Positions 14,681 to 34,335 of a stretch of 34,612 bases of DNA are shown here, piece after piece. The stretch lies in the NCBI GenBank assembly GCA_041745855.1, contig JBGTIE010000568.1, positions 1 to 34,612 on the forward strand. Reading direction: 5' to 3'. The notes beneath the pieces are model-generated. The model was not told the DNA's origin. It made no database searches and saw nothing but the letters and a program-made list of their open reading frames with translations. The stretch comes from Lysobacterales bacterium. GTDB taxonomy: Bacteria; Pseudomonadota; Gammaproteobacteria; Xanthomonadales; SZUA-5. A program made the translations under genes and the position numbers. The stretch's first letter is position 1; each line of letters starts with the position of its first letter.

Positions 14681-14736
14681 GGTCGGCTCCGGTTGGAAAG
14701 GCCGACCCGATTGTTATGACAGAACCGCAGAAAATC

Positions 14737-15814: not shown

Positions 15815-15848
15815 TGATCGACTGACCCGTTGTTCGATTTGCAGAATC

Positions 15849-16676: not shown

Positions 16677-16897
16677 GGACCGGCCTTCTGGTCATCGGAG
16701 CTCGTACCATTTCCCTCCATCGAAGCAGCCATCTCCATCTGGGTGAGCAGCGCCCCATCCAAAACGGGTCTCGGAATTTTCGCCATCACGGTCTCGCAAA
16801 ACACCTTGTCGTTTAGCATTTGGTACCTCACATCCCTGCACAGGCAGTGGATCCTCATGCCATCGACCAGTTCGGAAGCTTCGAAGAAGTCGCTCAT
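16673..16897 (-). CDS. Small hypothetical protein (74 aa)
   Basis: The ATG at 16897 has AGGA upstream and the stop is coupled to the HNH start. No motif was recognised, so the coding status is uncertain. Confidence 0.4.
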   Translation of the reverse strand: MSDFFEASELVDGMRIHCLCRDVRYQMLNDKVFCETVMAKIPRPVLDGALLTQMEMAASMEGNGTSSDDQKAGP

Positions 16898-16974
16898 CGG
16901 ACCATCCTGGCTTGCGTTTCACAGTAGCAAAGGCTATGCTCCCAAGACTCATCAGCCCAAGGCTGAAGGAGCTG

Positions 16975-16997
16975 GGCCAACGCCACGTGCGTTGGCC
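16975..16997. terminator. 9-bp stem / 5-nt loop hairpin just downstream of the defence operon
   Basis: The sequence is GGCCAACGC-cacgt-GCGTTGGCC, 18 nt beyond the stop of the 162-aa gene. The T-run (TTACTTTTTCT) is on the plus-strand side, so it is not a textbook minus-strand intrinsic terminator. Confidence 0.3.
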
Positions 16998-17014
16998 TTA
17001 CTTTTTCTGCCGCA

Positions 17015-17503
17015 TCAAGATTGGCGCTTTGCATACTTGTTCTGCAGGCTGCGGCGCTTGCTTTCATAGTCAATCCAGTACGCCGTAATCAGCCTTCGTT
17101 GCCCGTCTGGATAGCGCTTCATCACGACCACGTAGTCACAGGCTTCCAGCCAGAGGTAGGTACGGATCTCGCCGCTACCCTCCTCGAAATCCCAGCTCCT
17201 AACGGCCGGATCGCTTAGATGATCGAATAGTGCGCGCGCCCAGGGGAGCCTTTCGCAGCGACGAAAGTCTGGCAGGCGGTTTCCCGAGCCCGGTGGATCC
17301 TCTCGTTCTGTCAGGTGCCAGAAGATCAGTTCCTTGCCGCGCTCCCTTTCAGGGAAGAACCAGACGCGTCGACCATGGTAGAGAGGTGGGTTCAGGATGA
17401 AGTCCTGACGAAAGGTCGCATAGAGCGTATGAAGAACCGCCTCGTTCCAGGGCGATATCGGCATGAGTTGCGGGAGCCACTCCGGTGTGTCGGGTTCGAT
17501 CAT
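17015..17503 (-). CDS. Hypothetical protein (162 aa), last gene of the defence operon
   Basis: The ATG at 17503 overlaps the DUF3800 stop as ATGA. The sequence is Trp/Arg-rich (LIFWHLTERED...RLPWARALF...YLWLEACDYVVVMKRY...ITAYWID). I recognised no family. Confidence 0.65.
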   Translation of the reverse strand: MIEPDTPEWLPQLMPISPWNEAVLHTLYATFRQDFILNPPLYHGRRVWFFPERERGKELIFWHLTEREDPPGSGNRLPDFRRCERLPWARALFDHLSDPAVRSWDFEEGSGEIRTYLWLEACDYVVVMKRYPDGQRRLITAYWIDYESKRRSLQNKYAKRQS

Positions 17504-18225
17504 GCCGCCACGGGCCTTCGTGGGGTGAATAGGAAAATGTTGAGCTTCTGTTCCCTGAGCGATGTTGCCCGCAACAGGCTGTGGCCCCAGCGTTCTTCAA
17601 TACGGCGGATGACCGCCTGCTTCGCGGCGTTTCCGTGAAGCCCGCGGTGGCGGTAAGCGAGGGCGCCGATCAGAAAATCTGCCACTTGCATCAACTCGGC
17701 TTCATGTGAATGAACGTTCTGAATGTGGCAGATCATCTCGCTGGTGAAGTCGTACACGTTGCTGCACAGCACTTCGCGCAGCTTCTGCACCTTCTTGCGG
17801 CTGCGTGTGTCCTTGATGTCGAGGTAGATCGCGTAGCAGCTGTCGGGCGAAAGGATCTTGCTCAGTAGTGAGAACTGCATCTTGTAGTAGAAGAGGTCAT
17901 GATCGCCTTGGTTGAAGGCCGTATGATCCAGTGCCTGTTTGTTGTGGACCACAAGTCCACGAAAATGCAACGACGACTCGCCGATGAACCAGTCCACCAG
18001 GTCCAGGTAAAAGGGAAGGCGGGACGCAGATGCCTTGGACCACTTCAACTCGCCGCGGGCACTGTGCCTTCGCTTGAGGTCGCGCAATTCCGCGGACAGT
18101 CTCCGCGTCTGGTCCTGCAGACACCAGATCGCGCCCAGCACCATGACCGGCTGGCCATCGTTCGGAAGATGACAGGACTCGTCGCAATAAACGTTGTATA
18201 GCTGGGGTTCGACGGTTGTGCTCAA
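17500..18225 (-). CDS. DUF3800-family protein
   Basis: It has N-terminal YNVYCDES (the DUF3800 acidic DE motif) and C-terminal ELMQVADFLIGALAY (the Q-x-A-D motif). The only start that preserves the DES motif is TTG at 18225, with GAGG about 10 nt upstream. Confidence 0.72.
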   Translation of the reverse strand: MSTTVEPQLYNVYCDESCHLPNDGQPVMVLGAIWCLQDQTRRLSAELRDLKRRHSARGELKWSKASASRLPFYLDLVDWFIGESSLHFRGLVVHNKQALDHTAFNQGDHDLFYYKMQFSLLSKILSPDSCYAIYLDIKDTRSRKKVQKLREVLCSNVYDFTSEMICHIQNVHSHEAELMQVADFLIGALAYRHRGLHGNAAKQAVIRRIEERWGHSLLRATSLREQKLNIFLFTPRRPVAA

Positions 18226-18309
18226 TGCAGATGACCTCGTTCGAGTCTTTCCCAGGCGTGCGGCGCGAAGCGATGGGTGCGGTAGCCGTCAAGCTTACCC
18301 GACTCCCTC

Positions 18310-20253
18310 TCACACCAGCTCCTGCTGAAGTGCGCCAAAGCGCCTGCGGAAGAGAAGCCCGTCCTCGCTATCTGCGGAAAGCGTAAGGCGTACGAACGGT
18401 TTGAAGTCGGGGGCAGGCTCGGTCGATGTGGTGACAATGTACTGGAACGCGCCGGCACTGTTCGAAGCAACGTGGCCCAGTAAGCGCCACAGCATGGCTT
18501 CGCTCATCTCCGCTTCGCGTGGGGAGTCGTGGAGCAGGAACCCAGGATGGAAGCTCTGCGCTGAAGTGCTATCCAGCAGGCAGGCGATGTCGCCGGCAAG
18601 GATCTCCAGAACACTGAAGGTCGTCGAGTGCATCGGACCCATCCGGAATGGGCGGTTCTGATGTTTCTCGTCATCGTTGAACACACCCCAGGTGAATCCC
18701 GGCAACGCGTTGGCGACGACATTCATGGTCTCGCCAAGGCTGTGCCGTCGCGCGCCCATCGCGCCACGCTCCGCTTCATGTTTGCCTCGAAGTACTTCGA
18801 GCCGATGCCTCCCTCCCTGCAGCCTCTGTTGCGCATTCACCAATTCGATCCAAGGGGAGCTGCCGGCGATGACCGCTTCGTAGTTCTCGTAGTCGTCAAT
18901 GGCCCCGCGGAGCAGCTCATGCCTGGACACGGTTTCGGCGTGTCGCCTGTCCAGATCTCCAATCCGCGACTCGATCTTCGTGAGTTGGTTATCGTAAGGT
19001 GCAGTCTCGGCGCTCAGAAGCTCACGTCGACCGCGAAGGTCGACCAGCCTGCGCTCGCGAAGGCGCTGAGCCTCGTGATGCCGCTTGATGCTCTGCGCGC
19101 GATCGATCTGGTCCAGCTCGATGCGCTCGTTCACGTGGCGGCAGTCCTTGAGCAGCAGGTGCCCAGCATCGCACCATGTCGCGAGCCTCTGCTGCAGGGA
19201 CGAAGCCTCCTTCTGTAGCTCGTCAACCCGATCGAGATCGCCCGCGTTGAACGCTTCCAGCTGCTCGATCTCGTTGTTGACCAGCTCGATCGACCTCTTG
19301 AGCGGGAAGCGCTTTTCAATCAAGGCCTCGCGCTCTGTCGCACGTCGTAGCCGCTCAGCGTCGATGGATTGAAGCTCTTCCTGATACGCATCATGTCGCT
19401 GGCGGGCAATAGCGATCAGATTCGGGTGGTCAATCAGTCCGTCCTGTCGGAACGGAACTTCATCCGGAACGTCAAGCAATCGGCTCAGCTGTCGACGCGC
19501 GTGAGTCAGGAGGTATTGGGGCTCCTCGCTAAGCGCCTGCAATCTCGCCTCTAGCTCGCTGACCTCCTTGCTGGCGCTGTCCAGGTCCCGAAGGGCCGTG
19601 GCGTCTTTCAGCAGGCCGAGGACGATTCGAAGCAATGCCACAGGGGACTTCGCCGGCAAGCTGAATCCGACGCCTTCGGCACGCCATTGGAAGTAGTTCT
19701 GGTAGCGGGCATTCTGGTCACGCGAGCACCAGGCCAGGAGATGATGCCATTGGATGGGCTGCTTCGATCCTGGCAGCTCCTGCACTGGAAGGACGCCGAC
19801 CAGATGCTGTTGCAGCGCTGCTTGATAGGCGTCGAACTCATTGTCCGACACATTGGCAGCCAATCTTCTCCAATCGGCGTTGCGCGAAGCCCGGTAGTGC
19901 TTCTGATGCTGCCATGGTTTCAACACAGTCCAGGCTTCGCCGCCGACGTGAACGCGGGCCGCGACCCCGCCTTCCTTCAGCTCTGCGCAGAACAAGAGTT
20001 CTTCGCGCAAGTTGGAGCCTTCAGACCAAAGTGGATCGTCCAGGACGAAGCGCAGCAACTGGCAGAAGGCGGTCTTGCCCACCCCATGCCCTGAGCTGCC
20101 GCTTGCTGGCGGAGAAACGACCAGATTGAGCCCGCGCCCAAAGGTGATCTCGCGCACAGGCTGCTCGGATGTCAGCGAATCCAGCAGCCACAGCGTCTCC
20201 ACCCACAGGTGCGGCCTGTCTGAGCCGACTGCGCGGGCGCCGACTTCAGGCAT
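18310..20253 (-). CDS. ABC/SMC-like P-loop ATPase with a long coiled-coil insertion (DUF2326/YydD-like)
   Basis: ITFGRGLNLVVSPPASGSSGHGVGKTAF is an N-terminal Walker A. A charged, heptad-like segment of about 300 aa follows (EVSELEARLQAL..., LRRATEREALIEKRF..., VDELQKEASSLQQRL...). The C-terminal region has GFLLHDSP (Walker-B-like) and FQYIVTTS. Confidence 0.82.
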   Translation of the reverse strand: MPEVGARAVGSDRPHLWVETLWLLDSLTSEQPVREITFGRGLNLVVSPPASGSSGHGVGKTAFCQLLRFVLDDPLWSEGSNLREELLFCAELKEGGVAARVHVGGEAWTVLKPWQHQKHYRASRNADWRRLAANVSDNEFDAYQAALQQHLVGVLPVQELPGSKQPIQWHHLLAWCSRDQNARYQNYFQWRAEGVGFSLPAKSPVALLRIVLGLLKDATALRDLDSASKEVSELEARLQALSEEPQYLLTHARRQLSRLLDVPDEVPFRQDGLIDHPNLIAIARQRHDAYQEELQSIDAERLRRATEREALIEKRFPLKRSIELVNNEIEQLEAFNAGDLDRVDELQKEASSLQQRLATWCDAGHLLLKDCRHVNERIELDQIDRAQSIKRHHEAQRLRERRLVDLRGRRELLSAETAPYDNQLTKIESRIGDLDRRHAETVSRHELLRGAIDDYENYEAVIAGSSPWIELVNAQQRLQGGRHRLEVLRGKHEAERGAMGARRHSLGETMNVVANALPGFTWGVFNDDEKHQNRPFRMGPMHSTTFSVLEILAGDIACLLDSTSAQSFHPGFLLHDSPREAEMSEAMLWRLLGHVASNSAGAFQYIVTTSTEPAPDFKPFVRLTLSADSEDGLLFRRRFGALQQELV

Positions 20254-20259
20254 GTCGCC

Positions 20260-23200
20260 TCATCCTCGCTTGCGCGAGACAGGCTGCGCCTGCGATGCCG
20301 AACCTGCCATTGTTGCCTCCAACGCGGTCTCGTGTTGACGACGCGCTTCAATCAACGCCTGTGCCAGCGACTCGGTGCGCGCATCGCCAATCACGTCGGT
20401 GAGTACATCGGGCGCGCGAACGGAGAGCGGTGCCGTGACGGGAACGCCGAGCAGGGAGCGCAGCCAGTCGCAGAGATGTGGCCAGCGTGCGTTGCTCAGC
20501 GCAACCCGCCAGCGGTCGAGTTCTTCGGCATACCGGGTGCTTGAAGGAAGCGGTGTGGCCAGAATCAAGCGCAATTGAGTGTCGTCGCAGGGCCCGGCTT
20601 GCAGGAGCACGTCGCAGACCAGGCCGGCAAGGAAATCTTCGGCTTCGGAGGCCGGAGTGCCGCCTTCGGCATACATGGGCAGGGGTGCCGTACGCCGCGC
20701 TGGAATGGTGAGGCGTTTCTGAACTTCCAGTGCATCCCAGGCTTCCAGCACCAGGCGCTGGGTGCGGTACTCGCCATGGGCCTTGAGTTCGTTCTTCTGC
20801 AGGACGCGAAAGGTCTCGGAGGGGTAGTCCGGGCCTTCGATGTCGGCGGGGTCGAGGATATAGCGCAGTTCGTCGCGGGTGAGCCCGTAGGCGCGGGCGT
20901 ACCAGGCGTCGAGTTCGGCGCGCAGGTGGGCGCGGCGATCGGGGTCAAAGCGGAAGGGCGGACCTTCGAAGCCGAGTTCGCGTGCCCAGGGTTCGAGGTC
21001 CCAAGCGGTGTATGTGAGTTCCAGCACTCGGGGGACGATAAAGGCCAGGTCGCCAGCGACAAAGTCTTCCGGGCCTGGAAGAGGCAACTGACGCAAGAAG
21101 TAAAAGCTAAAGTTCATGCCGCCAACCTTCTGGCGCGCTACATAGTCAAACGTCAGCGAATTGAGCCCGGCCAGAAGACAGGCTTGCGCAACGGCGTTGC
21201 GAGCCGGACAGAGCAGGAAGATGCTGTCTCCTGCCCCGCTCATAGGAAGGACATTCGCGATCATCGTCCTTTCGTCCGTGGATCGAGAGTTCCTTCGCCA
21301 ACCCAACAGCCACTGCCACTCCCAGTCCTTGTCCGTCAACCGTCGCCGCACGTCGGCCCCCTCCACCCAGTATCGCGGCGTGGGAGTGAAGCGCGGATTG
21401 GCCTTCTCGGCTTCAGTCACGTCGCGGCTGCCGACATCGCCCTTGCCAGCCTGACCTTTCTCGCTGGCTTCGTACGTAGCCCAGCGGTGGTCGAACTGGT
21501 GGATCATCTTGGCTTCGTACAGCGGCAGATCTCTTTCGCTCGCGGAGTCCGCGAACAGATGGCTGTCGCTTGACATGTTGTGCGTGCCTTGCATGAAGCG
21601 GATACCCCAAGGGTTCCGCTCCGGTCGGGTGCCGCGCCCCTCGCGGATGAGCACGGGCACGCGAAGGTAGATCTTGCGGGTCAGCTCGGCATCGCGCCTC
21701 GCACGAAACACCGGGCAAGTCAGCGTATTGGGGTTGATCCGAGTGAAATCTTCCGCACCCAGCGTGAATCGTCGGCGCGGATCTGTCAGTTGCCCGATCT
21801 GGGTGAGGAAGAACGCGAACTCCGCTTCAGCGGCTTGGCCCAAAGTCAGCAGGCAGAACTTGTAGCTACGGTGGACACCGGGAAAAATCCCCTCACGGTT
21901 CTCGAAGTCGTACAGACTGGCCAGCCGTCCACCCGACGCAATCGCTCCGAAGTAGGCCTTGGTCGAATCGTCGGTGGCGATGCCGGTCGGCACGATGAAG
22001 CCGGCACGACCGTTCGTGTCCACGATTTGGCTGATGGTCTCGGCGAACAGCGCATACGTGTTGACACGTCCAACCCCGGTCAGCCGATAGCGGCCACCGT
22101 CCTCACCGTCCACATGCGCGAACGTGCTGGCTGCGTCCAAGTTGCGCTTTGTGGTAAGAAACTCGCGATAAAGGCGCTGCTCGGCGAGGCAGACCGCTAT
22201 GCCTTGATCCCGATCAGGGTAGAGGTTGTGCGCCAACCTGCCTTGGGCCAGCCAGTCGATGCGATGGCTGCGCTCGGCCTTGTTCTTCGCCTGCGCCACT
22301 AGCGGATTGCGGGTGGCAAAGAACTCTTCCTCCTTCAGCTCAACATGTTCCCAGGGCGGATTTCCCAACACGCAATCGAAACCACCCTGTGCGAACACTT
22401 GCGGAAAGGTCAGCGGCCAGTGCAATACGCGTGCCTCGCGGCAAGCCGCGCGCGCGGCACCAAGCTGCCGGGCGTGCAGCGCGCCCGGCGTAGCCCCTAA
22501 CAGCTCGAAATAGAGTGACTGGCTAGTCGGGATCTGTTCGGCACTGGCTTGGGTCTTGGGCAGCAGAAATGCACCGAGTAGCAGGTCAGCTGCATGAGCG
22601 AGGTGGCTGGACTCTGCCTGCTGCTGAAATGCTTGCCATGCCGCGGCGCGAGCTTCGATGTCCGCCGTGGTGGCGTCGGGTAGCGCCTCCAGCGCCTTGA
22701 GCTGATCCATGCCGCTGGCGACGTCGAAGCGCATCAGCTGTTGGCCACGATTGAGGTCGCGCTCCAGCTGCTTGAGACCCAGCTTGTTCGCCTTCGCAAG
22801 TTCCCTGCACACGTCCTTGTCATCGCCGGACAGCGGCTTGAAGGCCGCCGCCGGGATGCCGGCCTCCAGCGCCTTGAGGTCAGTAATGCCGAGTAGGGCA
22901 TCGCCGCATTGCAGGTGATGATCGAGAAAGGATAGCGGTCTGCCCTCCTCAAAGCCCTCCAACCACAGGGCCGTGCGGCACAACTCTCTCGCCATCGGGT
23001 TGCGGTCGACGCCGTAGATGCAGCGGCCGATGACTTCACGCAAGGCATGACGATAGTCCGGCTCGAGGACAGCGCCCTCCACGCTGCGCAACGCGGCCAG
23101 GCGCTCGGCCAGTCGCCGGGCAGCTGCTAGCAGGAAGTGCCCGCTACCGCATGCCGGATCTATCACCTTGATACTAAGCAGGGCCTCGGTGGGGTTGTCG

Positions 23201-24693
23201 GGGCACTCGGCCAGACGTGCATTGATCACCGGGTCCAACGCGGTGCGAATCAACTCGGCAACCAGCGTGTCTGGGGTGTAGTAACTACCGCTGATCTTGC
23301 GCGCATGGCCTTGGGTGCTGCCCTCGCTGGTCAGGCCGACGAAGCCGAACCGGCGCGCGGATAGTTCCAATTCCGGCACCAGCTCAAGCAGGCTCTCGTA
23401 GACGCTGCCCAACTCCTCAGGGCCCATGTTTCGATAGTCGATCGGCACCCGCAAACCGCCGACACCGGCCCAGCGCAGTTGCTCCAGTGCGGCGAGCAGA
23501 TCAGCATTGGCGAGACTCGCTACGTCCAGGTCCGGACACTGTTCTGCGGCGAACAAGCCGCCCAGCGCCGGCAGCGCCAGTCGCGCTTCGCCATCCCGCA
23601 GGCCGCGGAAGACGATACGGGTGGCTTGCCAGAGATCCTCGAAGCTCGTTCTGGCGCGCCGCTTGAGCACGCGCTCGCGCAAGCGAGCCTGGGAATAGCC
23701 TTCGGCGTAGGCACGGCGAGCCGCAACGGCTGTCGGGCTGTCATCGTGCGGATGCAGCAGCCCGCGCTCCTCGACGGTGAAGACGAAGATCAGCCGATAA
23801 ATCAACCGCAGCAACTGCTCGAAGTAGCCGTCCTTGTCCAGCTGGCCATCCTGCAGGCGCTGACGCAATGTGCCGTTGCCAGAGTGCTGGAGAAAGCCGT
23901 TCCCAAGCGCAAGCAATGCGCTCGTGACACCGCTGCGCAAGCCCTCCCTGACTCGAGTGCCTTCCTCACGACCGGTCTCGCGCCAGTTCTCCCAGATGCA
24001 TGCCTGGGCTGGCGCGCCCGCTTGGCCGGCGCGGCTGGCATGCAACAAGCGCCAGACCAGCGGGAACTCGGGATAGCGCTGGGCGCCGAGCAGATCCTGC
24101 AGGTCGAACTCCAGATAGCTGGGGCGGGTTAGCGTCGCCGCATCGCGCAGCAGGCGCAGCTGACGACCGTTGCTGACGATGCCCCACAGATGGTCGTCGC
24201 TGGCATTGAGGAATTCCTGCGCCAGCTGAAATGCCGACTTGCGACGGCTGCCGCTACCGCTGACTGCGAAACGTTCATCGGGATCGTCCAGGCCCAGGTT
24301 GTGCGGCGCCACGACCACAGGCAGCACGCCCGCGATGAGTTGCACAGGGTATCGGCGCTCAGCGAGTGCCATGCCGTCGATGGCGTGAATGCCGTGGTAA
24401 CCGAAGGCATCTTCGAGCAGTTCCCGCACGAAGGCGTGCGTCGTTGAAGCTGGATCCAGGTCGGTGCGTTCAAGCATGGAGGCAAAGTGCTTCCATTGCG
24501 CCGAAGCGATCTGGAAAGCACGGCTGAAATCATCCTTCAGCTTGAGCCCCTTGGGCGTCCCGTAGTCAGCTTCGGCTTGCCGCGCGGCCTGTCCGTGCGC
24601 AGCCTTCTCCAGCTGATCTGGGAGGAACAGTCCGCCCACCAGACGCAAGCAAGGCAGGTCAAGCGCGGCGTGCTGTCCTCGAACGCGCTTCAT
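20260..24693 (-). CDS. Large gamma-class N6-adenine DNA methyltransferase (DISARM DrmMI / Eco57I-like)
   Basis: YYTPDTLV, VIDPACGSGHFLLAAARRL (SAM motif I) and VLGNPPWEH (NPPW motif IV) are present. It is 1477 aa with long N- and C-terminal extensions. There is an ATGA overlap with the SNF2 gene. Confidence 0.9.
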   Translation of the reverse strand: MKRVRGQHAALDLPCLRLVGGLFLPDQLEKAAHGQAARQAEADYGTPKGLKLKDDFSRAFQIASAQWKHFASMLERTDLDPASTTHAFVRELLEDAFGYHGIHAIDGMALAERRYPVQLIAGVLPVVVAPHNLGLDDPDERFAVSGSGSRRKSAFQLAQEFLNASDDHLWGIVSNGRQLRLLRDAATLTRPSYLEFDLQDLLGAQRYPEFPLVWRLLHASRAGQAGAPAQACIWENWRETGREEGTRVREGLRSGVTSALLALGNGFLQHSGNGTLRQRLQDGQLDKDGYFEQLLRLIYRLIFVFTVEERGLLHPHDDSPTAVAARRAYAEGYSQARLRERVLKRRARTSFEDLWQATRIVFRGLRDGEARLALPALGGLFAAEQCPDLDVASLANADLLAALEQLRWAGVGGLRVPIDYRNMGPEELGSVYESLLELVPELELSARRFGFVGLTSEGSTQGHARKISGSYYTPDTLVAELIRTALDPVINARLAECPDNPTEALLSIKVIDPACGSGHFLLAAARRLAERLAALRSVEGAVLEPDYRHALREVIGRCIYGVDRNPMARELCRTALWLEGFEEGRPLSFLDHHLQCGDALLGITDLKALEAGIPAAAFKPLSGDDKDVCRELAKANKLGLKQLERDLNRGQQLMRFDVASGMDQLKALEALPDATTADIEARAAAWQAFQQQAESSHLAHAADLLLGAFLLPKTQASAEQIPTSQSLYFELLGATPGALHARQLGAARAACREARVLHWPLTFPQVFAQGGFDCVLGNPPWEHVELKEEEFFATRNPLVAQAKNKAERSHRIDWLAQGRLAHNLYPDRDQGIAVCLAEQRLYREFLTTKRNLDAASTFAHVDGEDGGRYRLTGVGRVNTYALFAETISQIVDTNGRAGFIVPTGIATDDSTKAYFGAIASGGRLASLYDFENREGIFPGVHRSYKFCLLTLGQAAEAEFAFFLTQIGQLTDPRRRFTLGAEDFTRINPNTLTCPVFRARRDAELTRKIYLRVPVLIREGRGTRPERNPWGIRFMQGTHNMSSDSHLFADSASERDLPLYEAKMIHQFDHRWATYEASEKGQAGKGDVGSRDVTEAEKANPRFTPTPRYWVEGADVRRRLTDKDWEWQWLLGWRRNSRSTDERTMIANVLPMSGAGDSIFLLCPARNAVAQACLLAGLNSLTFDYVARQKVGGMNFSFYFLRQLPLPGPEDFVAGDLAFIVPRVLELTYTAWDLEPWARELGFEGPPFRFDPDRRAHLRAELDAWYARAYGLTRDELRYILDPADIEGPDYPSETFRVLQKNELKAHGEYRTQRLVLEAWDALEVQKRLTIPARRTAPLPMYAEGGTPASEAEDFLAGLVCDVLLQAGPCDDTQLRLILATPLPSSTRYAEELDRWRVALSNARWPHLCDWLRSLLGVPVTAPLSVRAPDVLTDVIGDARTESLAQALIEARRQHETALEATMAGSASQAQPVSRKRG

Positions 24694-27476
24694 AGGGCGT
24701 CCGGGAGCAGTACGTAGACGCCAATCAGATCAAGCGGCAAGCAGGGGCTCACGCTGTACTGGCCGACGTCACGGGCGGCCTCGCGCACGCGGCGGTGATC
24801 TTCCAGCAGGGCTTGCGCACGTTCGTCGGCAAGGGATTCCAGCTTTTCAGGGTGAGCGCGAAGGAAAACCATCGCCGCCTCGATTTCGTGCTGGATCTGA
24901 GCTGGGGAGAGGTTGCCGCTGGGCTGGCACTGGAGCAGCGCATCGGTGCTGGACTCGACTGACCAGACCGGTGAGGCGCGACCGCGCACAGCCAGAGTGA
25001 GTGTTTCCTCAGCCATCAGCTGGTGGGGTTGGCGACGGCGGACGTAGCTCAGCTGATGACGCAGGCGTAGCAGGTAGAGGGTGGTGACGACCTCCACATC
25101 GCCCGTGACGGTTGCCGCGCAACGCGCGGCCATGGGTTGCTCGCCCTGAAGTGTGTCCTCCAGCAGATGTTCGGCAATCACGGTCACCAGCGGATGACTG
25201 CGATGAAGCTGAGCCAGATCCAGCGTGTGAGGCAATGCCAGACCTTCGTCTTCCAGTCGCAGCCGCAGGGGCTCGGGGAAGTGCTGTGGCAGGAACCGTA
25301 CATGGTCCTTGCGCAGCGGTTCTAATGGCGAGTTCAGGCGCGCGCAGGCGCTCCGCAGGAAGCGATGCACATCGGCCTGATCGCCCAGGGCCTGCTGCTG
25401 CTTGCGCCATTCCGGCAACACTTCGTCAGGACGGATTCGGCGCTGGGCAAAGACGGTGCGGTTGGCCTTGGCCTTGTCCAGCGCGTCACGCCACTGCGCC
25501 TGGAGCGGTTCGAGCAGTTGTTCGGATTCGCCGAAATCGAAACTGGCCTGGGGTGAGTTATGTTGGGCGTCGCTGCGCTTCATCAGCGCGGCCTTGACCA
25601 GTGCCTGATTGATGCGCAGTTCGTCCTCGGGCATGGGCACCAATACACCAAGTTCCTTCTGGATCGCCTCGCCTTTGCGCAGGATCACATTCAGGACGAA
25701 GCCATCGACAGGGTTGTCCTGACCATAGAGCATCGTGCAGCGCACGCTCTTGGCTTCCTGCCCGAAGCGATCGACCCGGCCCTCGCGCTGTTCATGACGG
25801 GTGGGGTTCCAGGCCAGGTCGTAATGCACGACGGCAGTAAACAGATGTTGGAGGTTGATACCTTCCGAAAGGCAATCGGTGGCCACCAGCACGCGCCGGT
25901 TTGCTTCGGTCATGCTCTCGACACGGTCCTTGCGTTCGTCGGGGGTCTGCTCTCCGGTCACCGCCTCCACCAGAACATCTGGAAAGTCGCGCCGCAGATG
26001 TTCGGCGACATAGTGCGCCGTGGCCACATAGCGACAGAAGACCACGACATGGAAGCCATCCGACAGCAACTCCTGCAAGTGGCGAACCAGGACTGAAAGC
26101 TTGGGATCAGTCGCACGGCCGGACAGGCGCTGGGCTTCGCCAATCAAGGATTGCAGACGCAGGGTGTCCTGCAATTGTGCTGGTGGCTCCAGATCGCTGC
26201 CGGACAGATCATCAGCCTGACCATCGTGAAGGCGGTCGTCCAACAAGTCCGAGGCTTCGTCGACGGCAGCACCTTCCAATCGCGTGGTCAGGGCTTTCAC
26301 AGCGGCCGCGGGCGAGGAGGCGACACAGCGCAGAAGTGCCAATGTGGCGTACCAGATCAGGCGAGCGCCACCGCCCCCGGCGTGTTGCATGCTTTCGGCC
26401 AGATCTCGGCAATAGGCCTGCACCGAATCGAAGAAAGCGCCCCATTCGCCGCTGAGCTGATAGGTGATCTCGGTCTTCATGCGGCGGGGGAAGGCGCGTC
26501 CCTCTGAAGACTCGATCTGCCATTCCTCGATATCCTTTCGGCGGCGCTGAACGAAGTGCCGCGCCAGCCGTTGGCGCAATGGGTGGTCGGCCGAGTTATG
26601 ACCCTGCAGGCCGGCGAATTCCGGATCGAGCAAGGCAATCAAGTTGTAGAAGGCCGCTTCGTCCCCGGAGTGAGGCGTAGCTGTGAGCATTATGAGGTGC
26701 CGCTCGGGATCGACCAGAAGGCGCTGCAGCAACTCGTAGCGCAGCTGCTTGCCGCGGCCTCCGGTTGCGCAAGTGTGCGCCTCGTCTACGATCAGGCACT
26801 CCGGCGCGATGCTGAGGAAGTGATCTCGGTGGCGTTCGCTCTTGATGTAGTCAAGGCTGACGACCACGATCCGATGATGCTCAAACAAACTTACGCCGTG
26901 CGGTAACTCACGCTCAACGCGGTTGGCAGTAGCCGCCGTGAGAGCGACTGCGGGCAAGTGAAAGCGATCGGCCAGCTCGCCCTGCCATTGATCGACGAGA
27001 TGCGGCGGACAGAGCACGGCCGCTCGGCCGATCTCCCCGCGGTCCAGCAGTTCGCGTACGATCAGGCCGGCTTCGATGGTCTTTCCGATACCGACGTCAT
27101 CGGCGATGAGCAGACGAACGGTAGACAAGCGCAATGCCATCAACAAAGGAACCAGCTGATAGGCCCGGGGTTCGACACCAATGTTGCCGAAGGATCGGAA
27201 CGGTCCAGCACCGGCGCGCAACTTCAGCCGCAGCGCATCTCGCAGAAGCAAAGCGCCCGCATGAGTACCTGGCCGCGTTGGGTCCGGCCAGTGGAAACTC
27301 GCTGATTCGACTGGATCGAGCTCCAGGTCAGGGATAACGCCGACGACATCTTCGTCTGCACCGCCGAGTGGACGCAGTCGCAGCCAATCCGGCCTTGAGT
27401 CGCCGAGTACGACCCACTCGCGGCCGCGTGCGCGAACGAGATTACCCGGTTGGAATGAGAGGCCCGATTGCATCAT
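24690..27476 (-). CDS. SNF2-family helicase (DISARM DrmD-like)
   Basis: ADDVGIGKTIEAG (motif I), IVDEAHTC (II), LTATPHSG (III), LSEGINLQ (V) and WNPTRHEQREGRVDRFGQ (VI) are present. The N-terminal region shows G..VRARGREWVV. Confidence 0.9.
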   Translation of the reverse strand: MMQSGLSFQPGNLVRARGREWVVLGDSRPDWLRLRPLGGADEDVVGVIPDLELDPVESASFHWPDPTRPGTHAGALLLRDALRLKLRAGAGPFRSFGNIGVEPRAYQLVPLLMALRLSTVRLLIADDVGIGKTIEAGLIVRELLDRGEIGRAAVLCPPHLVDQWQGELADRFHLPAVALTAATANRVERELPHGVSLFEHHRIVVVSLDYIKSERHRDHFLSIAPECLIVDEAHTCATGGRGKQLRYELLQRLLVDPERHLIMLTATPHSGDEAAFYNLIALLDPEFAGLQGHNSADHPLRQRLARHFVQRRRKDIEEWQIESSEGRAFPRRMKTEITYQLSGEWGAFFDSVQAYCRDLAESMQHAGGGGARLIWYATLALLRCVASSPAAAVKALTTRLEGAAVDEASDLLDDRLHDGQADDLSGSDLEPPAQLQDTLRLQSLIGEAQRLSGRATDPKLSVLVRHLQELLSDGFHVVVFCRYVATAHYVAEHLRRDFPDVLVEAVTGEQTPDERKDRVESMTEANRRVLVATDCLSEGINLQHLFTAVVHYDLAWNPTRHEQREGRVDRFGQEAKSVRCTMLYGQDNPVDGFVLNVILRKGEAIQKELGVLVPMPEDELRINQALVKAALMKRSDAQHNSPQASFDFGESEQLLEPLQAQWRDALDKAKANRTVFAQRRIRPDEVLPEWRKQQQALGDQADVHRFLRSACARLNSPLEPLRKDHVRFLPQHFPEPLRLRLEDEGLALPHTLDLAQLHRSHPLVTVIAEHLLEDTLQGEQPMAARCAATVTGDVEVVTTLYLLRLRHQLSYVRRRQPHQLMAEETLTLAVRGRASPVWSVESSTDALLQCQPSGNLSPAQIQHEIEAAMVFLRAHPEKLESLADERAQALLEDHRRVREAARDVGQYSVSPCLPLDLIGVYVLLPDAL

Positions 27477-27479
27477 TGA

Positions 27480-30400
27480 TCAGTTCTGGGTTGACCCGAA
27501 CACGGTGGGATGGAGGGAGAAAAGCTCGGACCAACGGGCCTGATCGGAGAAGTCCAGGACCTGCCAACCCTTGTCGACGAGCAAGCTGCGCAGATGATCT
27601 GCGAGTGGGTCGATGAACACCAGCGCGCGCGACTGTCTGTACTGCCCGGCAGCGCTTGCAGCTCCGCCCGCCACGACGACATTCAGTGCGTCAGGTTCCC
27701 GCAATCCGCGGGTCCGCAGCGCCTGCAGCCATTCGCTAGATGATGGATTTGGATCGTCATCAGGCGTGCTCCCCACGTGGCTCGTCAAACTGACGCGAGA
27801 CTGCGCCAACGCCACGAGAAGATCGAGTACGTCCGAATCCCGACGGTTGATGTGGTCGTGATCGGGCTGGTTGAAGTACGACAACAGGCATCGATAGCAG
27901 CCGGCTTCGCAAGTGGCGATCCCATTTCGCCGCTCCTCCCACTGATCCAGTTCGGATCGAATCCAGACGCCTTCCGGCGCCTTGTAGTGCATCAGTTCCA
28001 GCGCCGCAGAGGCCACCTGCGCGAGGGCATCTGGATCGGTAGCGAGGCGGGTGAGCACGCCCGCGCCACCTTCGGCGGACTCATAGAACATCAGCGCTCT
28101 GCGATTATCCGAGGTGGGCAAGGGCTCGGCGACCAGCTCTGATTCCTCGATCTGGAAGCTCATCTCGATACCGCGCTTGAGCGCCGCCTGCAGGGTGGCC
28201 ATGGTCGTCAGAGAGAGGGGCCTGACCGGACTCAACGTGAGCAGATTCCGGTGATCTTCAACGAAGGGCACGATGCGCTGGTTGGGGATCTTGTCGATCG
28301 AGGCTTCATCGGCATTCTGAGACGAATCGTCAGCGGTGGGATCGTCCTGCTTGCTCCAGGTGCCAGTGATCGGATTGATGTAGAAGCCCAACTGTTCCTT
28401 GTTCTTGCGCCGGCGCCAGCCGCGATTGATGCGCCACAAGCGTGCCGATGGCGTATAGACCAGACCCGCCAGCACGTCTTCTCCCAGGCGCACCTCCGCC
28501 TGCCGCTTCTGGATCTCGCCGTCAGGGCCGGGCATGAAGCGATAGGTGGTCTGTAACTCGAAGCCCTGGCGCTGGCGGTCTTCGTCGTTGATCGAGATCC
28601 GCTCGACTGCCACGGTTTCCACCGTTTCGATACGGTAGAGCTGCTTCACCCAGTCGCCTTCGGTCAGCAGCGCATCGCAATGCTCGCAGCGCTCGGCGAG
28701 CGGCTCGGGGTCACCCGGCTCACCCAAATGCCCATAGCCGCACTGACTGCAGATGCGCGAGGCGATCGTGCTAAGTAGCCCGCTGCCCGAGACATGTTCG
28801 GCCGCGCCAACATTCAGCTTGGCCCGAACCACACGGTACATGCGGCCCTGATGATAAATGAGGCTGCGCGGACCGAACTCGGACAGGGCAAGGAAGCGCG
28901 GTCTGCTGACCATGTTCCCCTCGTCATCAGCCGCACCTGCGCCACTGCCGCCACGTGCGGGAATCCACGCCATGAGTGGCAAGCGCGGGAAGTTGTAGCC
29001 CGGTAGAAATCCCTGACTGGCCAGATAGCGGTAGGTGTAGAAGTCGGTTCCTTGGGAATTTCCGGACTTGAGCAGGACCGCATATTGACGCGCAGCATCA
29101 CCATAACGACGACTGGCGTTCTGCCGCTCGCCGTGGGTTGCGGTGTGACTCTTGACGATCTGGTCCGCCAGATCCATCTGCTTGCGGGTTGAGTCGAAGA
29201 GCACACGCCAGCGCTCCAGAGCGCCAGAAAACATGCCGGGCGAGCCCTCGATTACCTTGTCCACGTAGTCTTCGGTGAACCAGTCGACTTCCTGCAGCGA
29301 CTCGCGTAGGCGTGCAGCGACGGTGCGCGCGCTCGTGCGAGCCCGCGCGAGTACGTCAGTTGCAGACAACAGCTCATGCAGCGGCCCCTTGACCGGCTTG
29401 CCAGGCAAGTCCAGATCCAGTAGCGGCGCAATGCTGCTGTCCAGTTCGACCCTGGTAGAGGCGAGCCAGATCGCGCGCAGATGGCTTTCGAGCAGATCGC
29501 GATTGGCCAGGTCCAGGGTCGGGGGTTTGACGACACCGTGGACCATTTCGTCGGCGTGACTGAAGAACCACTGGTCATGCGGGCTTTGTGCCGCACAGTA
29601 GGTGATGACCAGCGCTTGCTGGCCCGAGCGACCGGCACGACCGCTCCGTTGGGCGTAGTTGGCCGGTGTCGGCGGTACGTTCCGCAAGAAGACCGTATTC
29701 AGCGCTGAAATGTCGACGCCCAACTCCATCGTTGGCGAGCAGAACATTACCGGCAGCCGCTCCAGCGGCGTTTCGTGGGCAGGATTCTGTGCCCAGTCTT
29801 TGCGGTCCTTCTCGCTGTAGCGGAAGCGCTGTTCCAGCCACTGCCGCCGGCTAGCCTCGACCTGAGCAGTGTGTTCCTGGGCCTCGAACTCGAACAGCGG
29901 ATGGCCGGGCTGACGGAGCAGTTCGCCAATTTGCAGGTAGAGCTGCCTGAAGAAGGTGTTGGCGGCGCTGGGTTTCGGGTCCTCTGAGACCAGGCACCAG
30001 TCCATGGCTGCCGCGTTCAAGCGCCAGCCGACGAGTTCGTTGTCCACCGCCAGCTTGTGCACATAGCCATAGAGTGCCGCTGCCTGCAGCATGGCCTTGA
30101 TCAGTTCGGCCCACTCTGTCTCCCTCCAGGCATGGGTCTGGTCTGCGAACGGCGTCGCCTTCCAGACCTTGGATGACTTGACTCGCTTGAGCAGACGCGA
30201 TCGTGGACCGCCTGCGACCACATCGGTCCTGGGCCTTCCTCGGTACTCCGGCCGCCGGTCAAGGATCAGGAATCGGGCTGTTTCGAGGCTCTCATCAGGC
30301 GCGAAGGCCCAACGCTCGTGCAAATAGGAGAATGCGCTGTTGCGCGCCTTGTCCTGCTCGGTGGGATCGAGATAGCGACTTTCCAGGCACAGGCCGCGAC

Positions 30401-32756
30401 GCATCTCGTCGAACAGCAGCTGAAACAATTCGGCACGGCTGGCAGCATCCAGTCGACCCAAGACCGAGTCTTGCGGAACAAAGAGGCTTTCCTCGCTGCA
30501 GAATTCCTGCATGCCTCGATAACGAATTGCCAGCAGGCCCAATTGGTCCAGATTGGGGTTGTTGAATCGCCAGCCCCGACGCAAGTCTCGAAGCAAGCGA
30601 TAGCCAATGACAAACCGGAGTGTGCGCTGTGCCTCCTGCCGCGCCAGCCCCATCAGTTTGGGTGAACGCAGGTACTCAGACAGTGTCGCTACGTCAACCT
30701 GCTGAAATCCAAGTGAGGTGAAGACCGCATCAGCGAGGTGCTCTTCAGTGAGCACGCCCTGGCTTGCCTTGAGTGCTCCGATCAATGCCGCGCGCAAGGT
30801 GAGCAGAAAGACGAAGTCGTTGAAGTGACCCGCCTGCAGTGCAGCATCCTGACGGTTGTCGGAAAAGCCAAGCAGCTTGCGCGGATCAGGCATTCCTGCT
30901 GGAAGGTCAGCCTGCCGGAAGAGCAGACTGAGTGCGCTGACGGTAAGCATCGTCGTCGCCGAAGACCTGCCCTCACCCGAGAGGCTGGAAAGGCGGTTGA
31001 TGTCCTTGCCATGCGCCTCGTGAACCTCCCTACAGGCCAAACAGAAGCGAAACTTTCCTGGAATGAACCAGTAGGGCTCGCCGCGACCCTCCAGACCTTG
31101 CGCATCGACTCGTGTCGGTGTGGGTACAGCTGCTCGGTAGCTGGACTTGACCTTCGGCTCCGATCTGGTGAGGTCCAGCCACCCTTCCGGGAGATCCTCA
31201 ATGCTGCCGGTGTAGGCTAACTGGTCGGACTGCGGGCACAGGAAGCCAAACCGGGCAGCGTCCGCATCCTCGGCGGTCATGTCATCAATTTCCCGCGGAT
31301 CGAACTGGATGTGACTTCCCTGTTCAGTTCGCCAGACCGGGTGGTACTCCTGGCCACAATCGCGACAGAAATGCGCCGGGTACAAGCGCACTCCCTCGCC
31401 TTGCCGTCCTGGAGCGAAGCGTTGCGCATCCAGGGTAACGTGCCGCTTTCCGGGTGCCTCAAGAGTCGTCAGAACTTTTCCGGGGCCACTGATGAACTGA
31501 TGCAGCTTGAAGGCGAATGGCGCTCGGCCCAGCGGTGTCCTGAGCTCGTTGGCGGCAACCAGGAATCGCTGCAATGCCGTCTTGGCTTCTCCTTGGGAGC
31601 ACCCTGCATCGACCATCAGTCGTTGGCTGGCCTGGTGCAGCGTGACTGGCCTGGCCCGGCGCGGCGCTTCGTCACCATTGAGCTCAATTCCTAGCGTCAG
31701 CTCGACCCAGATCGCCAAGGGCGACTTCTGGAAGGCCCCTAGATCTGGCCAGGAAAACTCCTCACGCTGCACTTCAGCGAGCAGGAGCGGACAAACGGCC
31801 GCTACGTCTTTCGACTGGTCGGTCACTCGCTCCAGCGTCTCACCGATGACATCGTGCTCGGAAACCCGGACACCGAAAAGCTTGCTGGCCACGTCGGCAA
31901 CCGTTCTGTTTCGATCGGCCGGGTTCCCTGCGCTGGACATGGTGGCCGAGGTGCCAATGCAGACCAGATCCTCCGCATTGAGCCGCTCTCGCAGTCGCCG
32001 AACCAACATCGCTACATCCGCACCTTGCCGACCGCGGTAGGTGTGAAGTTCGTCGAGCACCAGAAACTGTAGGCCACGACAGTGCTCGACAACGCGCCGA
32101 TCCGTGTCGTCGTGCCGAGTCATGATCAGCTCAAGCATCATGAAGTTGGTCAGCAGGATGTCGGGCGGGCAATCCGCAATCTGAAGTCGCTCGCTCTGGC
32201 TTTCCTGGCCCGTGTAGCGGCCCACGGTGAAGGGTCTGGATCCTTCGGGAAAGTCGCACAGAAACTTCTCCAGCTCCTCCATCTGGCTGTTGGCCAGCGC
32301 ATTCATCGGGTAAATCACGATGGCGCAGGTGCGAGGAGCACTATCCACGGACTTGCTGCGCAGGACGTGATCCACGATGGGCAGGAAGAACGAGAGGGAC
32401 TTTCCAGAGCCCGTTCCAGTTGTGACCACGAAGCTCTGCTTTGACTTTCCCTTCGCCAGTGCCTCGATCTGGTGGGCGAACAGCTGCAGGGGTCTGGGGT
32501 CACCCTCGGGCTTGCCGGAAAGGAACAGAGTCGCGCAACCTGGATGCAGCTCACCATGCTCAGACAGCGTCTGAACGGTCGCCTTGCGTTGATAGTTGGG
32601 ATTGATCTGAATCAGTGGCTCGGGCCAATACCGGCCTGCCGCATACTCGCTATCGACCGCGTCTCTTATGTCGCCAGCGGCGATGCGCGTGAAGCTTCGG
32701 GAGAACTCGCTGTAGTCCGAAACGACCTGGTCTCGAAACCGGAAGACATCTTCCAT
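27480..32756 (-). CDS. 1758-aa DEXH helicase fused to a DUF1998 (MrfA-type Zn-binding) module: DrmA+DrmB fusion / DruE-like
   Basis: Motifs by residue number (my count):
- GTGSGKS, 114-120.
- DELH, 235-238.
- SAT, 270-272.
- FSDNRQDAA, 631-639.
- QRSGRAGR, 1036-1043.
- YRYLASQGFLPGYNFPR, 1242-1258.
- CSQC..CEHC, 1336-1360.
- CEAGCYRC, 1616-1623.
The ATG is at 32756 with GAGGGA upstream. Confidence 0.9.
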   Translation of the reverse strand: MEDVFRFRDQVVSDYSEFSRSFTRIAAGDIRDAVDSEYAAGRYWPEPLIQINPNYQRKATVQTLSEHGELHPGCATLFLSGKPEGDPRPLQLFAHQIEALAKGKSKQSFVVTTGTGSGKSLSFFLPIVDHVLRSKSVDSAPRTCAIVIYPMNALANSQMEELEKFLCDFPEGSRPFTVGRYTGQESQSERLQIADCPPDILLTNFMMLELIMTRHDDTDRRVVEHCRGLQFLVLDELHTYRGRQGADVAMLVRRLRERLNAEDLVCIGTSATMSSAGNPADRNRTVADVASKLFGVRVSEHDVIGETLERVTDQSKDVAAVCPLLLAEVQREEFSWPDLGAFQKSPLAIWVELTLGIELNGDEAPRRARPVTLHQASQRLMVDAGCSQGEAKTALQRFLVAANELRTPLGRAPFAFKLHQFISGPGKVLTTLEAPGKRHVTLDAQRFAPGRQGEGVRLYPAHFCRDCGQEYHPVWRTEQGSHIQFDPREIDDMTAEDADAARFGFLCPQSDQLAYTGSIEDLPEGWLDLTRSEPKVKSSYRAAVPTPTRVDAQGLEGRGEPYWFIPGKFRFCLACREVHEAHGKDINRLSSLSGEGRSSATTMLTVSALSLLFRQADLPAGMPDPRKLLGFSDNRQDAALQAGHFNDFVFLLTLRAALIGALKASQGVLTEEHLADAVFTSLGFQQVDVATLSEYLRSPKLMGLARQEAQRTLRFVIGYRLLRDLRRGWRFNNPNLDQLGLLAIRYRGMQEFCSEESLFVPQDSVLGRLDAASRAELFQLLFDEMRRGLCLESRYLDPTEQDKARNSAFSYLHERWAFAPDESLETARFLILDRRPEYRGRPRTDVVAGGPRSRLLKRVKSSKVWKATPFADQTHAWRETEWAELIKAMLQAAALYGYVHKLAVDNELVGWRLNAAAMDWCLVSEDPKPSAANTFFRQLYLQIGELLRQPGHPLFEFEAQEHTAQVEASRRQWLEQRFRYSEKDRKDWAQNPAHETPLERLPVMFCSPTMELGVDISALNTVFLRNVPPTPANYAQRSGRAGRSGQQALVITYCAAQSPHDQWFFSHADEMVHGVVKPPTLDLANRDLLESHLRAIWLASTRVELDSSIAPLLDLDLPGKPVKGPLHELLSATDVLARARTSARTVAARLRESLQEVDWFTEDYVDKVIEGSPGMFSGALERWRVLFDSTRKQMDLADQIVKSHTATHGERQNASRRYGDAARQYAVLLKSGNSQGTDFYTYRYLASQGFLPGYNFPRLPLMAWIPARGGSGAGAADDEGNMVSRPRFLALSEFGPRSLIYHQGRMYRVVRAKLNVGAAEHVSGSGLLSTIASRICSQCGYGHLGEPGDPEPLAERCEHCDALLTEGDWVKQLYRIETVETVAVERISINDEDRQRQGFELQTTYRFMPGPDGEIQKRQAEVRLGEDVLAGLVYTPSARLWRINRGWRRRKNKEQLGFYINPITGTWSKQDDPTADDSSQNADEASIDKIPNQRIVPFVEDHRNLLTLSPVRPLSLTTMATLQAALKRGIEMSFQIEESELVAEPLPTSDNRRALMFYESAEGGAGVLTRLATDPDALAQVASAALELMHYKAPEGVWIRSELDQWEERRNGIATCEAGCYRCLLSYFNQPDHDHINRRDSDVLDLLVALAQSRVSLTSHVGSTPDDDPNPSSSEWLQALRTRGLREPDALNVVVAGGAASAAGQYRQSRALVFIDPLADHLRSLLVDKGWQVLDFSDQARWSELFSLHPTVFGSTQN

Positions 32757-34235: not shown

Positions 34236-34274
34236 GGCATTCCCCCGTGATGTGTGCCCATGGGTGAAAGGCTG

Positions 34275-34304
34275 GTGTGCCCAGATTGTCCGATCTGGGC
34301 ACAC
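34275..34304. promoter_or_regulatory. Perfect 12-bp inverted repeat with 6-bp spacer upstream of int; candidate operator or core/arm-type site
   Basis: The sequence is GTGTGCCCAGAT-tgtccg-ATCTGGGCACAC, 40-70 nt upstream of the proposed int start. Both arms contain the TGGGCAC heptamer that is also repeated nearby. Confidence 0.5.
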
Positions 34305-34314
34305 TTGGCGGCTT

Positions 34315-34335
34315 CATGGGCACAACCATGGGCAC
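34315..34335 (+). repeat. Two CATGGGCAC copies 12 bp apart; candidate arm-type sites (mnmE-proximal arm)
   Basis: The sequence is CATGGGCACaacCATGGGCAC. It has the same motif, phasing and orientation as 4077-4097. An inverted copy (GTGCCCAT) lies at 34254-34261. Confidence 0.4.

Follow-up and report, generated by a model that had tools for sequence, protein, structure and literature searches.

The minus strand of the 34,612-nt window analysed here (the whole stretch from position 1 to 34,612 of contig JBGTIE010000568.1, from a Lysobacterales bacterium) carries a multigene defence locus that is likely to be an ARMADA type I system, that is, a DISARM-related, restriction–modification (R-M)-like system which resides on an integrase-bearing island, holds an embedded PDC-M04 cassette and has an HNH_2 endonuclease as its most likely effector. 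This judgement applies jointly to the composition of the locus, which comes from sequence and comparative data, and to its mechanism, which is inferred. Six minus-strand genes are referred to as P1 to P6 in operon order, from the helicase (P1) to a 162-aa protein (P6), and coordinates are collected in Table 1. All six open reading frames (ORFs) lie precisely where the initial annotation had put them, with intergenic spacers of 3, 6 and 84 nt and two 4-nt overlaps, both ATGA, and Pfam and PADLOC likewise bear out the domains that it had read from them. They are real genes, as each has full-length homologues at 40–77% identity in many genomes, and their catalytic motifs are intact (GTGSGKS and DELH in P1, GIGKT and DEAH in P2, DPACGSG and NPPW in P3, FLLHD in P4, DES and QVAD in P5).

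The name rests on the first three genes. ARMADA, the ‘disARM-related Antiviral Defense Array’, was defined by Bell et al. (2025; bioRxiv 10.1101/2025.09.15.676423; PMC12458937), whose text gives the type I order as a YprA homologue followed by a BrxHII-like helicase and a PglX-like methylase, places the type I YprA helicase nearest to DruE of Druantia, and assigns it a C-terminal Vsr-type nuclease labelled ‘active?’. The window has this defining order of YprA helicase, SNF2 helicase and methylase, and P1 is a fused OB-CON-DUF1998-type YprA helicase of the Druantia/ARMADA branch. The same order is conserved across Gamma- and Betaproteobacteria and one Desulfovibrionaceae metagenome-assembled genome in our survey, which comprised an ATPase-anchored set (26 genome loci plus five from exact look-ups) and a set of 80 metagenome loci anchored on the methylase core; L numbers below denote these loci. 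The contigs that hold L005 and L012, namely CP051685.1 (Massilia forsythiae) and CP182250.1 (Pseudomonas sp. RHF3.3-3), respectively, have entries as ‘ARMADA Type I helicase’ in Table S1 of Bell et al., and the proteins of these two loci are 59–73% identical to P1–P4; the locus-tag numbers in that table agree with the positions of both loci, a match of contig and approximate locus-tag position rather than of protein sequence. Pseudomonas aeruginosa accounts for 93 entries in the table, and in our data one ATPase sequence occurs on 269 contigs and the system is common in P. aeruginosa.

The window thus shares with published type I systems the same three proteins in the same order, a helicase nearer to DruE than to DrmA, and carriage on an integrase/AlpA island. 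It differs in that the published form consists of three genes with a predicted active Vsr domain, whereas here the Vsr motif is lost and the locus further comprises a terminal HNH_2 gene, an SMC-like ATPase that is optional and paired with a methylase extension, and a slot for cassettes. ARMADA type II, exemplified by the experimentally validated Escherichia coli ArmABCD, is homologous in ArmA, ArmB and ArmC, but has the order SNF2 helicase, methylase, YprA helicase and a fourth gene, ArmD (a RelE-GajB-like helicase), and neither is found in the window. According to the text of Bell et al., type II provides direct, non-abortive defence that depends on the NPPW motif and on every ATPase motif (PMC12458937).

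Profile searches of the individual proteins agree with this placement. In P1, the Walker A motif GTGSGKS lies at residue 114, DELH at 235, Helicase_C at 999–1045 and the DUF1998/MZB zinc cluster at 1522–1624, and two CxxC pairs at residues 464 and 572, between RecA1 and RecA2, are consistent with the zinc-binding module of the ARMADA helicase described in PMC12458937. Matches in PDB were to YprA (6znp, E=3.6e-21) and to the large unnamed helicases 9tu7 and 9wae, two entries that may represent DruE. The initial annotation had taken this gene for a fusion of drmA and drmB; with PADLOC scores of 279 bits for DruE against 53 for DrmA, and 15 bits against the NCBIfam model DISARM_DrmAL (DrmA; cut-off 999), it is better described as a YprA/DruE-type helicase that natively carries the OB-CON-DUF1998 region. 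P3, with its SAM motif DPACGSG at residue 512 and NPPW at 778, scores 230 bits against the PADLOC DrmMI model. P2 scores 282 bits against DrmD and 169–182 against BrxHII in PADLOC, and, among NCBIfam models, 327 bits against DISARM_DrmD (cut-off 610), 129 against RapA and 206 against DpdE (cut-off 500). On these scores P2 and P3 are best regarded as homologues of DrmD and DrmMI rather than as equivalogs. No significant domain was found by single-sequence Pfam search in the N-terminus of the methylase or the C-terminus of the SNF2 protein.

Two side observations concern these proteins. The PADLOC DpdE model PDLC02853 matches P2 with 678 bits, far above its DrmD and NCBIfam DpdE scores, so that automated annotation could mislabel ARMADA type I loci as Dpd. 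In addition, the methylase homologues of nine loci (L006, L007, L008, L011, L013, L015, L016, L019 and L026) carry an insertion of ~150 aa between the equivalents of P3 residues 1119 and 1127, which may represent a swapped or added specificity module.

The relationship to DISARM that had initially been proposed, with DrmC and its phospholipase D (PLD) nuclease missing, is borne out. DISARM class 1 (DrmD, DrmMI, DrmA, DrmB, DrmC) and the window both have an SNF2 helicase, an N6-adenine (N6A) methylase and a DUF1998-bearing helicase module, and both presumably discriminate self from non-self through methylation. In contrast to the window, class 1 systems have separate DrmA and DrmB proteins, the DrmC PLD protein and a different gene order. 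Assignment to class 1 was therefore rejected: helicase and DUF1998 lie in a single ORF of 1758 aa, the NCBIfam DISARM DrmD and DrmA models score far under their cut-offs, and no DrmC is present, as the HxK(x)4D motif occurs nowhere in the six frames of the window and no PLDc family match was found among the 26 window ORFs scanned. The suggested resemblance to Hma also falls away. P2 has a partial HmaA match (174 bits in PADLOC), but the methylase of Hma makes m5C (PMC8565338), unlike the N6A enzyme P3 (Eco57I, N6_Mtase, NPPW), and the PADLOC matches of P4 are to LmuB and JetC only, with none to HmaC. The ‘Type-1 BR’ BREX-related systems (PMC12839542), with a DUF499 ATPase and a DUF1156 methylase, are unlike the locus in composition. 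The initial view that the locus fits no one described system is thus right as regards DISARM class 1 and Hma, but P1–P3 do fit ARMADA type I.

Downstream of these genes, the steadiest partner of P1–P3 is the HNH_2 endonuclease gene, which encodes 275 aa from its GTG start and 267 aa as called in a public collection. Of the methylase-anchored loci, 44 extend for 6 kb or more downstream and are termed informative here; 38 of these have HNH_2 downstream on the same strand, as do most genome loci, and the six without it have the most divergent methylases (40–47% identity). Where no cargo intervenes, HNH_2 begins 0–53 nt after the ATPase or methylase; in cargo-bearing loci it lies 0.4–6.4 kb downstream and is still the terminal gene. 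HNH_2 is thus a conserved terminal gene of this proteobacterial ARMADA type I subfamily. Its catalytic motifs, HAKP (169) and NGL (187), are invariant, and the HNH domain matches PDB entries 6YEX and 6YMG (VcaM4I) with E=1.4e-18. The AlphaFold2 (AF2) model is of moderate confidence, with a poorly modelled HNH part and a confidently folded N-terminal domain, and VcaM4I was the sole return of a Foldseek search with it. The N-terminal domain matched no EVE, SRA or PUA reader, nor anything else, in Pfam or by Foldseek with this model, and the PADLOC matches of the protein were to generic HNH and Type II restriction endonuclease models only. As an aside, a 378-aa ORF (14771–15907, minus strand) overlaps the 3′-end of the HNH_2 gene by 59 nt; nothing in Pfam or PADLOC matched it, nor did any of the first 31 related loci hold a homologue.

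The second nuclease to be considered is the one built into the helicase. In alignments of helicase C-termini, divergent relatives retain the Vsr/DUF559 motif ‘PDF...DGPxH’, and four of the five scanned relatives that keep it match Pfam DUF559 at 22.7–31.1 bits (cut-off 20.6), whereas in the clade of the window the catalytic ‘PDF...DGxxH’ is replaced by ‘AAGQY...IDPL’ alongside a 10-residue deletion. The C-terminus of the window helicase gave no DUF559 or Vsr match at E<=10 in a single-sequence Pfam search, and a PDB profile search with it returned only marginal matches, to large helicases, so that the active Vsr-type PD-(D/E)xK nuclease expected at the C-terminus of P1 was not found. Because the motif is lost, ten residues are deleted and DUF559 is no longer matched, the built-in nuclease is very probably dead in this clade, a decay that would leave HNH_2 as the sole intact DNA nuclease predicted among the conserved genes here.

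Between the ATPase and HNH_2, the window holds P5 and P6, which match PDC-M04A and PDC-M04B as an adjacent pair over nearly their full length. The PDCs are ‘phage defence candidates’, defined as such because they occur embedded in BREX, DISARM or Type I R-M systems, and the text of Payne et al. (2024; bioRxiv 10.1101/2024.01.29.577857) contains no report of defence activity for PDC-M04. P6 has no Pfam match, and DUF3800, the domain of P5, has been modelled as RNase H2-like for a retron-associated family (PMC7736814). None of the other 30 genome loci has a homologue of P5 or P6, and among the 80 metagenome loci only L064 and L068 have such homologues, so that PDC-M04 is lacking in ~108 of ~110 related loci. 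The cassettes of L064 and L068 are 74–76% and 60–61% identical to that of the window, while their host genes are only 29–55% identical to it, indicating that the cassette moves independently of the host system. Similarly, a DUF3800 gene overlapping a 154-aa gene, i.e. the same architecture, occurs in the immunity region of E. coli IncY P1-like plasmids, where no helicase/methylase system and no ARMADA lies near the pair. These patterns argue that PDC-M04 is an independent, exchangeable two-gene candidate system.

The site that it occupies has a fixed position directly before the terminal HNH_2 gene and elsewhere holds HEC-03A/B with an RNA ligase, HEPN_RES_NTD1-RES, Schlafen/AlbA_2, PDC-M65A/B, UvrD-like helicases, GmrSD/HEC-06 with HicAB, AIPR or an unassigned 410-aa protein. 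At least eight types of cassette have thus entered the slot, a hot spot for the embedding of defence genes. The 410-aa protein, which matches nothing in Pfam or PADLOC, is encoded by an intact gene directly upstream of HNH_2 in L020/L037, L029, L046 and L088, and the window retains a remnant that covers 61 of its residues and whose stop overlaps the GTG start of HNH_2 (GTGA). This remnant is presumably the scar of a cassette replacement in which PDC-M04 took the place of the 410-aa gene. Directly after the PDC-M04B stop lies a 10-bp GC-rich hairpin (GGCCAACGC...GCGTTGGCC; 16974–16998), with a T-run only on the opposite strand, which may mark the cassette boundary, and a scan of 14500–20400 found no sigma-70-like promoter site. 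That defence genes become embedded in DISARM, BREX and Hma is well established according to Payne et al. (bioRxiv 10.1101/2024.01.29.577857), whose account also extends to Type I R-M and resembles what we see in that co-oriented, exchangeable cassettes are nested in a larger system; HEC-03, HEC-06/GmrSD, PDC-M04 and PDC-M65 all come from that catalogue. The difference is that the host here is ARMADA type I and that the slot is fixed before a terminal HNH_2 gene.

The ATPase, P4, was placed by its fold, as a profile search against PDB sequences gave only coiled-coil noise. It has a Walker A motif (GHGVGKT, residues 55–61) and a Walker B motif (FLLHD, 572), scores 23.4 bits against Pfam DUF2326 (under the cut-off of 28.7), and in its AF2 model (mean pLDDT 74) an ABC head is split by a long coiled coil, as in LmuB of Lamassu, Bacillus subtilis YydD (DUF2326) and Rad50/SMC proteins. 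The best fold match is YydD (9a6c, E=1e-11), followed by LmuB (9uxh, 9hqx and 9nyg, 1e-8 to 1e-7) and then Rad50, JetC and SMC. Lamassu itself was rejected for the locus: the PADLOC matches to LmuB are weak (47 and 40 bits) and no LmuA or LmuC was found among the scanned window ORFs. P4 further differs from LmuB, YydD and Rad50 in being coupled to an extension on the methylase, or in other loci on a Type III Res subunit.

This coupling is strict. A methylase extension of 159–218 aa is present in 21 of 21 loci with the ATPase and in none of 57 without it, the methylases of ATPase-free loci ending 0–18 aa past the core. The extension showed no domain in a single-sequence Pfam search. There are two recognisable extension sequence types, each with its own matching ATPase type; the third ATPase type is divergent, and the extension before it, although similar in length, shows no detectable similarity. 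L022 and L028 have an ATPase of 45% identity downstream of a Type III Res subunit, and the C-terminus of that subunit is a homologue of the methylase extension (36–38% identity). We infer from these associations that extension and ATPase form an adaptor-plus-ATPase accessory module. The ATPase is an optional accessory, as it is present in only 16 of the 38 methylase-anchored loci that have HNH_2, a count which rules it out as a universal core gene. In L106 (7403–13690), methylase, extension and ATPase form one continuous ORF with 804 residues beyond the methylase core; a stop-codon mutation in the 6-nt methylase–ATPase spacer of the window would likewise give an in-frame fusion. The Type III loci L022 and L028 (1–12000) have their own order, namely DUF4391 (in L028), an AAA_13 ATPase, Mod, an embedded gene (Schlafen in L022, YhcG/DUF1016 in L028), Res and the coiled-coil ATPase.

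The mechanism that we propose would run as follows. The methylase P3 would mark a host motif with N6-methyladenine (m6A), and the SNF2 and YprA motors would load on unmarked invading DNA, as has been proposed for DISARM and, in the published account, shown genetically for ARMADA type II. Cleavage of the DNA would most likely fall to HNH_2, because the Vsr-type domain of the helicase has lost its catalytic residues in the clade of the window. The ATPase would probably dock on the methylase extension and, by analogy with LmuB, serve as a DNA-sensing or regulatory clamp, and PDC-M04 would act alone as a second defence layer.

Three other explanations deserve consideration. According to the initial annotation, all six genes belong to a single coupled unit, a hybrid between DISARM class 1 and Hma, with the ATPase, the DUF3800 protein and the 162-aa protein supplying the effector. 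The genes are indeed co-directional and as tightly spaced as described above, DUF3800 is possibly a nuclease in view of the RNase H2-like modelling of the retron-associated family, and no PLD nuclease is present. Co-orientation, however, is no evidence of coupling, because embedded genes share the orientation of their host system in 96.7% of cases (Payne et al., bioRxiv 10.1101/2024.01.29.577857), and P5 and P6 are missing from nearly all related loci, with unrelated cassettes in their place, match an independent candidate, recur as a pair of the same architecture on P1-like plasmids and, in L064 and L068, are far closer to those of the window than the host genes are, pointing to horizontal exchange. 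The coupled operon and the effector role thus do not hold for P5 and P6, which behave as an exchangeable cassette, and the expected conservation of the six-gene order is reduced, as regards the ATPase, to an association with the upstream genes in only ~40% of loci, tied to the methylase extension. The boundaries initially drawn (17015–32756) placed the six genes correctly but left HNH_2 outside. The comparative data thus already largely refute the six-gene hybrid, and we regard it as scarcely credible. It is also very unlikely, if somewhat less so, that the ATPase and HNH_2 form a two-gene system of their own, in the style of Septu, retron I-A or Lamassu, which is merely embedded after ARMADA. 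ABC ATPase plus HNH is a recurrent theme in defence, the retron IA complex 9n6b is among the fold matches, the ATPase resembles LmuB, and the two genes are adjacent (0–53 nt) in many cargo-free loci; yet 22 of 38 loci have HNH_2 but no ATPase, the ATPase also stands beside a Type III Res subunit with no HNH_2 and tracks the methylase extension perfectly rather than HNH_2, and cargo inserts between the two, so that the slot splits them.

The remaining alternative, which we consider unlikely but not negligible, is that HNH_2 is an autonomous Type IV modification-dependent enzyme that travels with ARMADA type I and covers phages with modified DNA, in which case the P1–P3 trio of the window clade would restrict without cleaving DNA or by way of a host nuclease. 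A parallel is BrxU/GmrSD, which travels with BREX. The affinity of the HNH domain to VcaM4I, an EVE-HNH modification-dependent enzyme, in both sequence and Foldseek searches favours this, as do the purely generic PADLOC matches and the retention of HNH_2 beside Vsr-intact helicases and with or without the ATPase. Against it stand the near-obligate, fixed terminal place of the gene in 38 of 44 loci while intervening genes vary, its translationally close spacing to the preceding core gene where there is no cargo, the lack of an EVE, SRA or PUA reader match in its N-terminal domain, and the presence of ARMADA type I genes or their remnants in five of five HNH_2-anchored contexts sampled.

Several points weigh against an ARMADA type I system with HNH_2 as effector. 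The experimental tests in the account of Bell et al. (PMC12458937) are all of type II, and the link to Table S1 is positional. Eight loci with HNH_2 (L051, L062, L072, L075, L081, L092, L101 and L105) have a helicase in which the Vsr motif is intact; HNH_2 therefore predates Vsr decay, a simple model in which HNH_2 replaced Vsr is ruled out, and from this coexistence HNH_2 may be an autonomous enzyme. Its HNH domain is closest to VcaM4I, a modification-dependent Type IV enzyme, its N-terminal domain is without assignment, and its protein family has at least 3864 matches, compared with at least 237 for the ATPase family, the contexts sampled being five. As for the accessory module, the contact between ATPase and extension is deduced from co-occurrence only, and the L106 ORF could be a natural fusion or equally a lost stop codon or sequencing error, as a single stop-codon change gives the in-frame fusion.

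The apparent ‘unclassifiable hybrid’ thus resolves into ARMADA type I plus an embedded cassette, a case which shows that embedding can mislead operon-based reading. Most of the locus is explained by known biology, and a few accessory features seem undescribed: the text and supplements of PMC12458937, figures aside, make no mention of the HNH_2 gene, Vsr decay, the extension-coupled ATPase or the cassette slot, which to that extent appear new to the literature on ARMADA. Taken together, these four features point to a division of labour within ARMADA type I that can be tested. It is conceivable, though we remain rather doubtful, that they amount to a portable SMC/LmuB-like module which plugs into unrelated restriction systems through an adaptor of ~155–200 aa, a hand-over of cleavage from Vsr to a trans-acting HNH_2, and a five-gene ARMADA subtype with a dedicated cassette-capture slot. 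The four features also make a convenient anchor for guilt-by-embedding discovery, and the system, being common in P. aeruginosa, is relevant to phage-therapy host range.

Table 1. Coordinates of the defence locus and the adjacent integrase in the window, in operon order.
Feature	Coordinates	Strand	Evidence
Tyrosine integrase with Arm-DNA-bind_3, directly upstream of the system and co-directional	32931..34304	-	Pfam
P1, ArmC-like YprA-family helicase, 1758 aa	27480..32756	-	Pfam DEAD, Helicase_C, MZB/DUF1998
Degenerate Vsr/DUF559-like C-terminal domain of P1, ~residues 1665–1758	27483..27764	-	Alignments of helicase C-termini
P2, ArmA-like BrxHII/DrmD/RapA-type SNF2 ATPase, 928 aa	24690..27476	-	Pfam SNF2-rel_dom, Helicase_C; GIGKT 129, DEAH 231
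P3 core, ArmB-like PglX/DrmMI-type N6-adenine methyltransferase, residues 1–1323	20725..24693	-	Pfam Eco57I, N6_Mtase, MmeI_Mtase
P3 C-terminal extension, residues 1324–1477, proposed adaptor domain	20260..20724	-	Co-occurrence with ATPase
P4, SMC/Rad50-family coiled-coil ABC ATPase, 647 aa, YydD/DUF2326- and LmuB-like	18310..20253	-	AF2 fold, PADLOC
P5, PDC-M04A, DUF3800 protein, first cassette gene	17500..18225	-	PADLOC PDC-M04A 301 bits; Pfam DUF3800 63.6 bits
P6, PDC-M04B, 162-aa partner, second cassette gene	17015..17503	-	PADLOC PDC-M04B 152 bits; ATGA overlap with P5
Putative remnant of another cassette gene, 74-aa ORF	16673..16897	-	52% identical over 16700–16888 to residues 350–410 of the 410-aa protein
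HNH_2 endonuclease, 275 aa from GTG start	15849..16676	-	Pfam HNH_2 44.4 bits

The surroundings of the locus carry signatures of mobility. There are two adjacent imperfect direct repeats with copies 30.4 kb apart, at 3828–4020 and 33422–34470: one spans 66 nt (88% identity) and the second 91 nt (82% identity), with ~33 identical bases at its end. One copy overlaps the integrase gene in its 5′ part, to which the 91 nt are adjacent, and the other, at 3828–4020, lies beside a 101-aa ORF (3896–4201). They look like an integrase remnant and an att-like site bounding a composite island of ~30 kb. ARMADA systems are carried on integrase/AlpA islands according to the text of PMC12458937, and the repeats and the tyrosine integrase directly upstream of the system, which marks the integration module of the island, are consistent with carriage of this kind on an integrative element. 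Beyond the downstream end of the defence genes there is a second mobility module (12799–14680, minus strand), with a tyrosine integrase (12799–13944), an HTH_17/MerR-like gene (13941–14519) and an AlpA-like 76-aa ORF (14450–14680), which suggests that two islands were inserted in tandem.

Two further groups of genes lie on the same strand. A five-gene cluster (4300–9696) has a G+C content of 0.49–0.57, compared with ~0.62 elsewhere, and encodes a 573-aa protein with a SAM-methyltransferase domain (PADLOC mad2, 81 bits), a 395-aa protein, an ABC_tran ATPase (mad3, 54 bits), a 233-aa protein and an ECF-transporter-like protein. Just outside the repeat-bounded island, at 2615–3669, a Fic/Doc protein (PDC-S04, 80 bits; SoFic, 43 bits) follows an Xre-type HTH protein, a pair that looks like a toxin–antitoxin or defence candidate.

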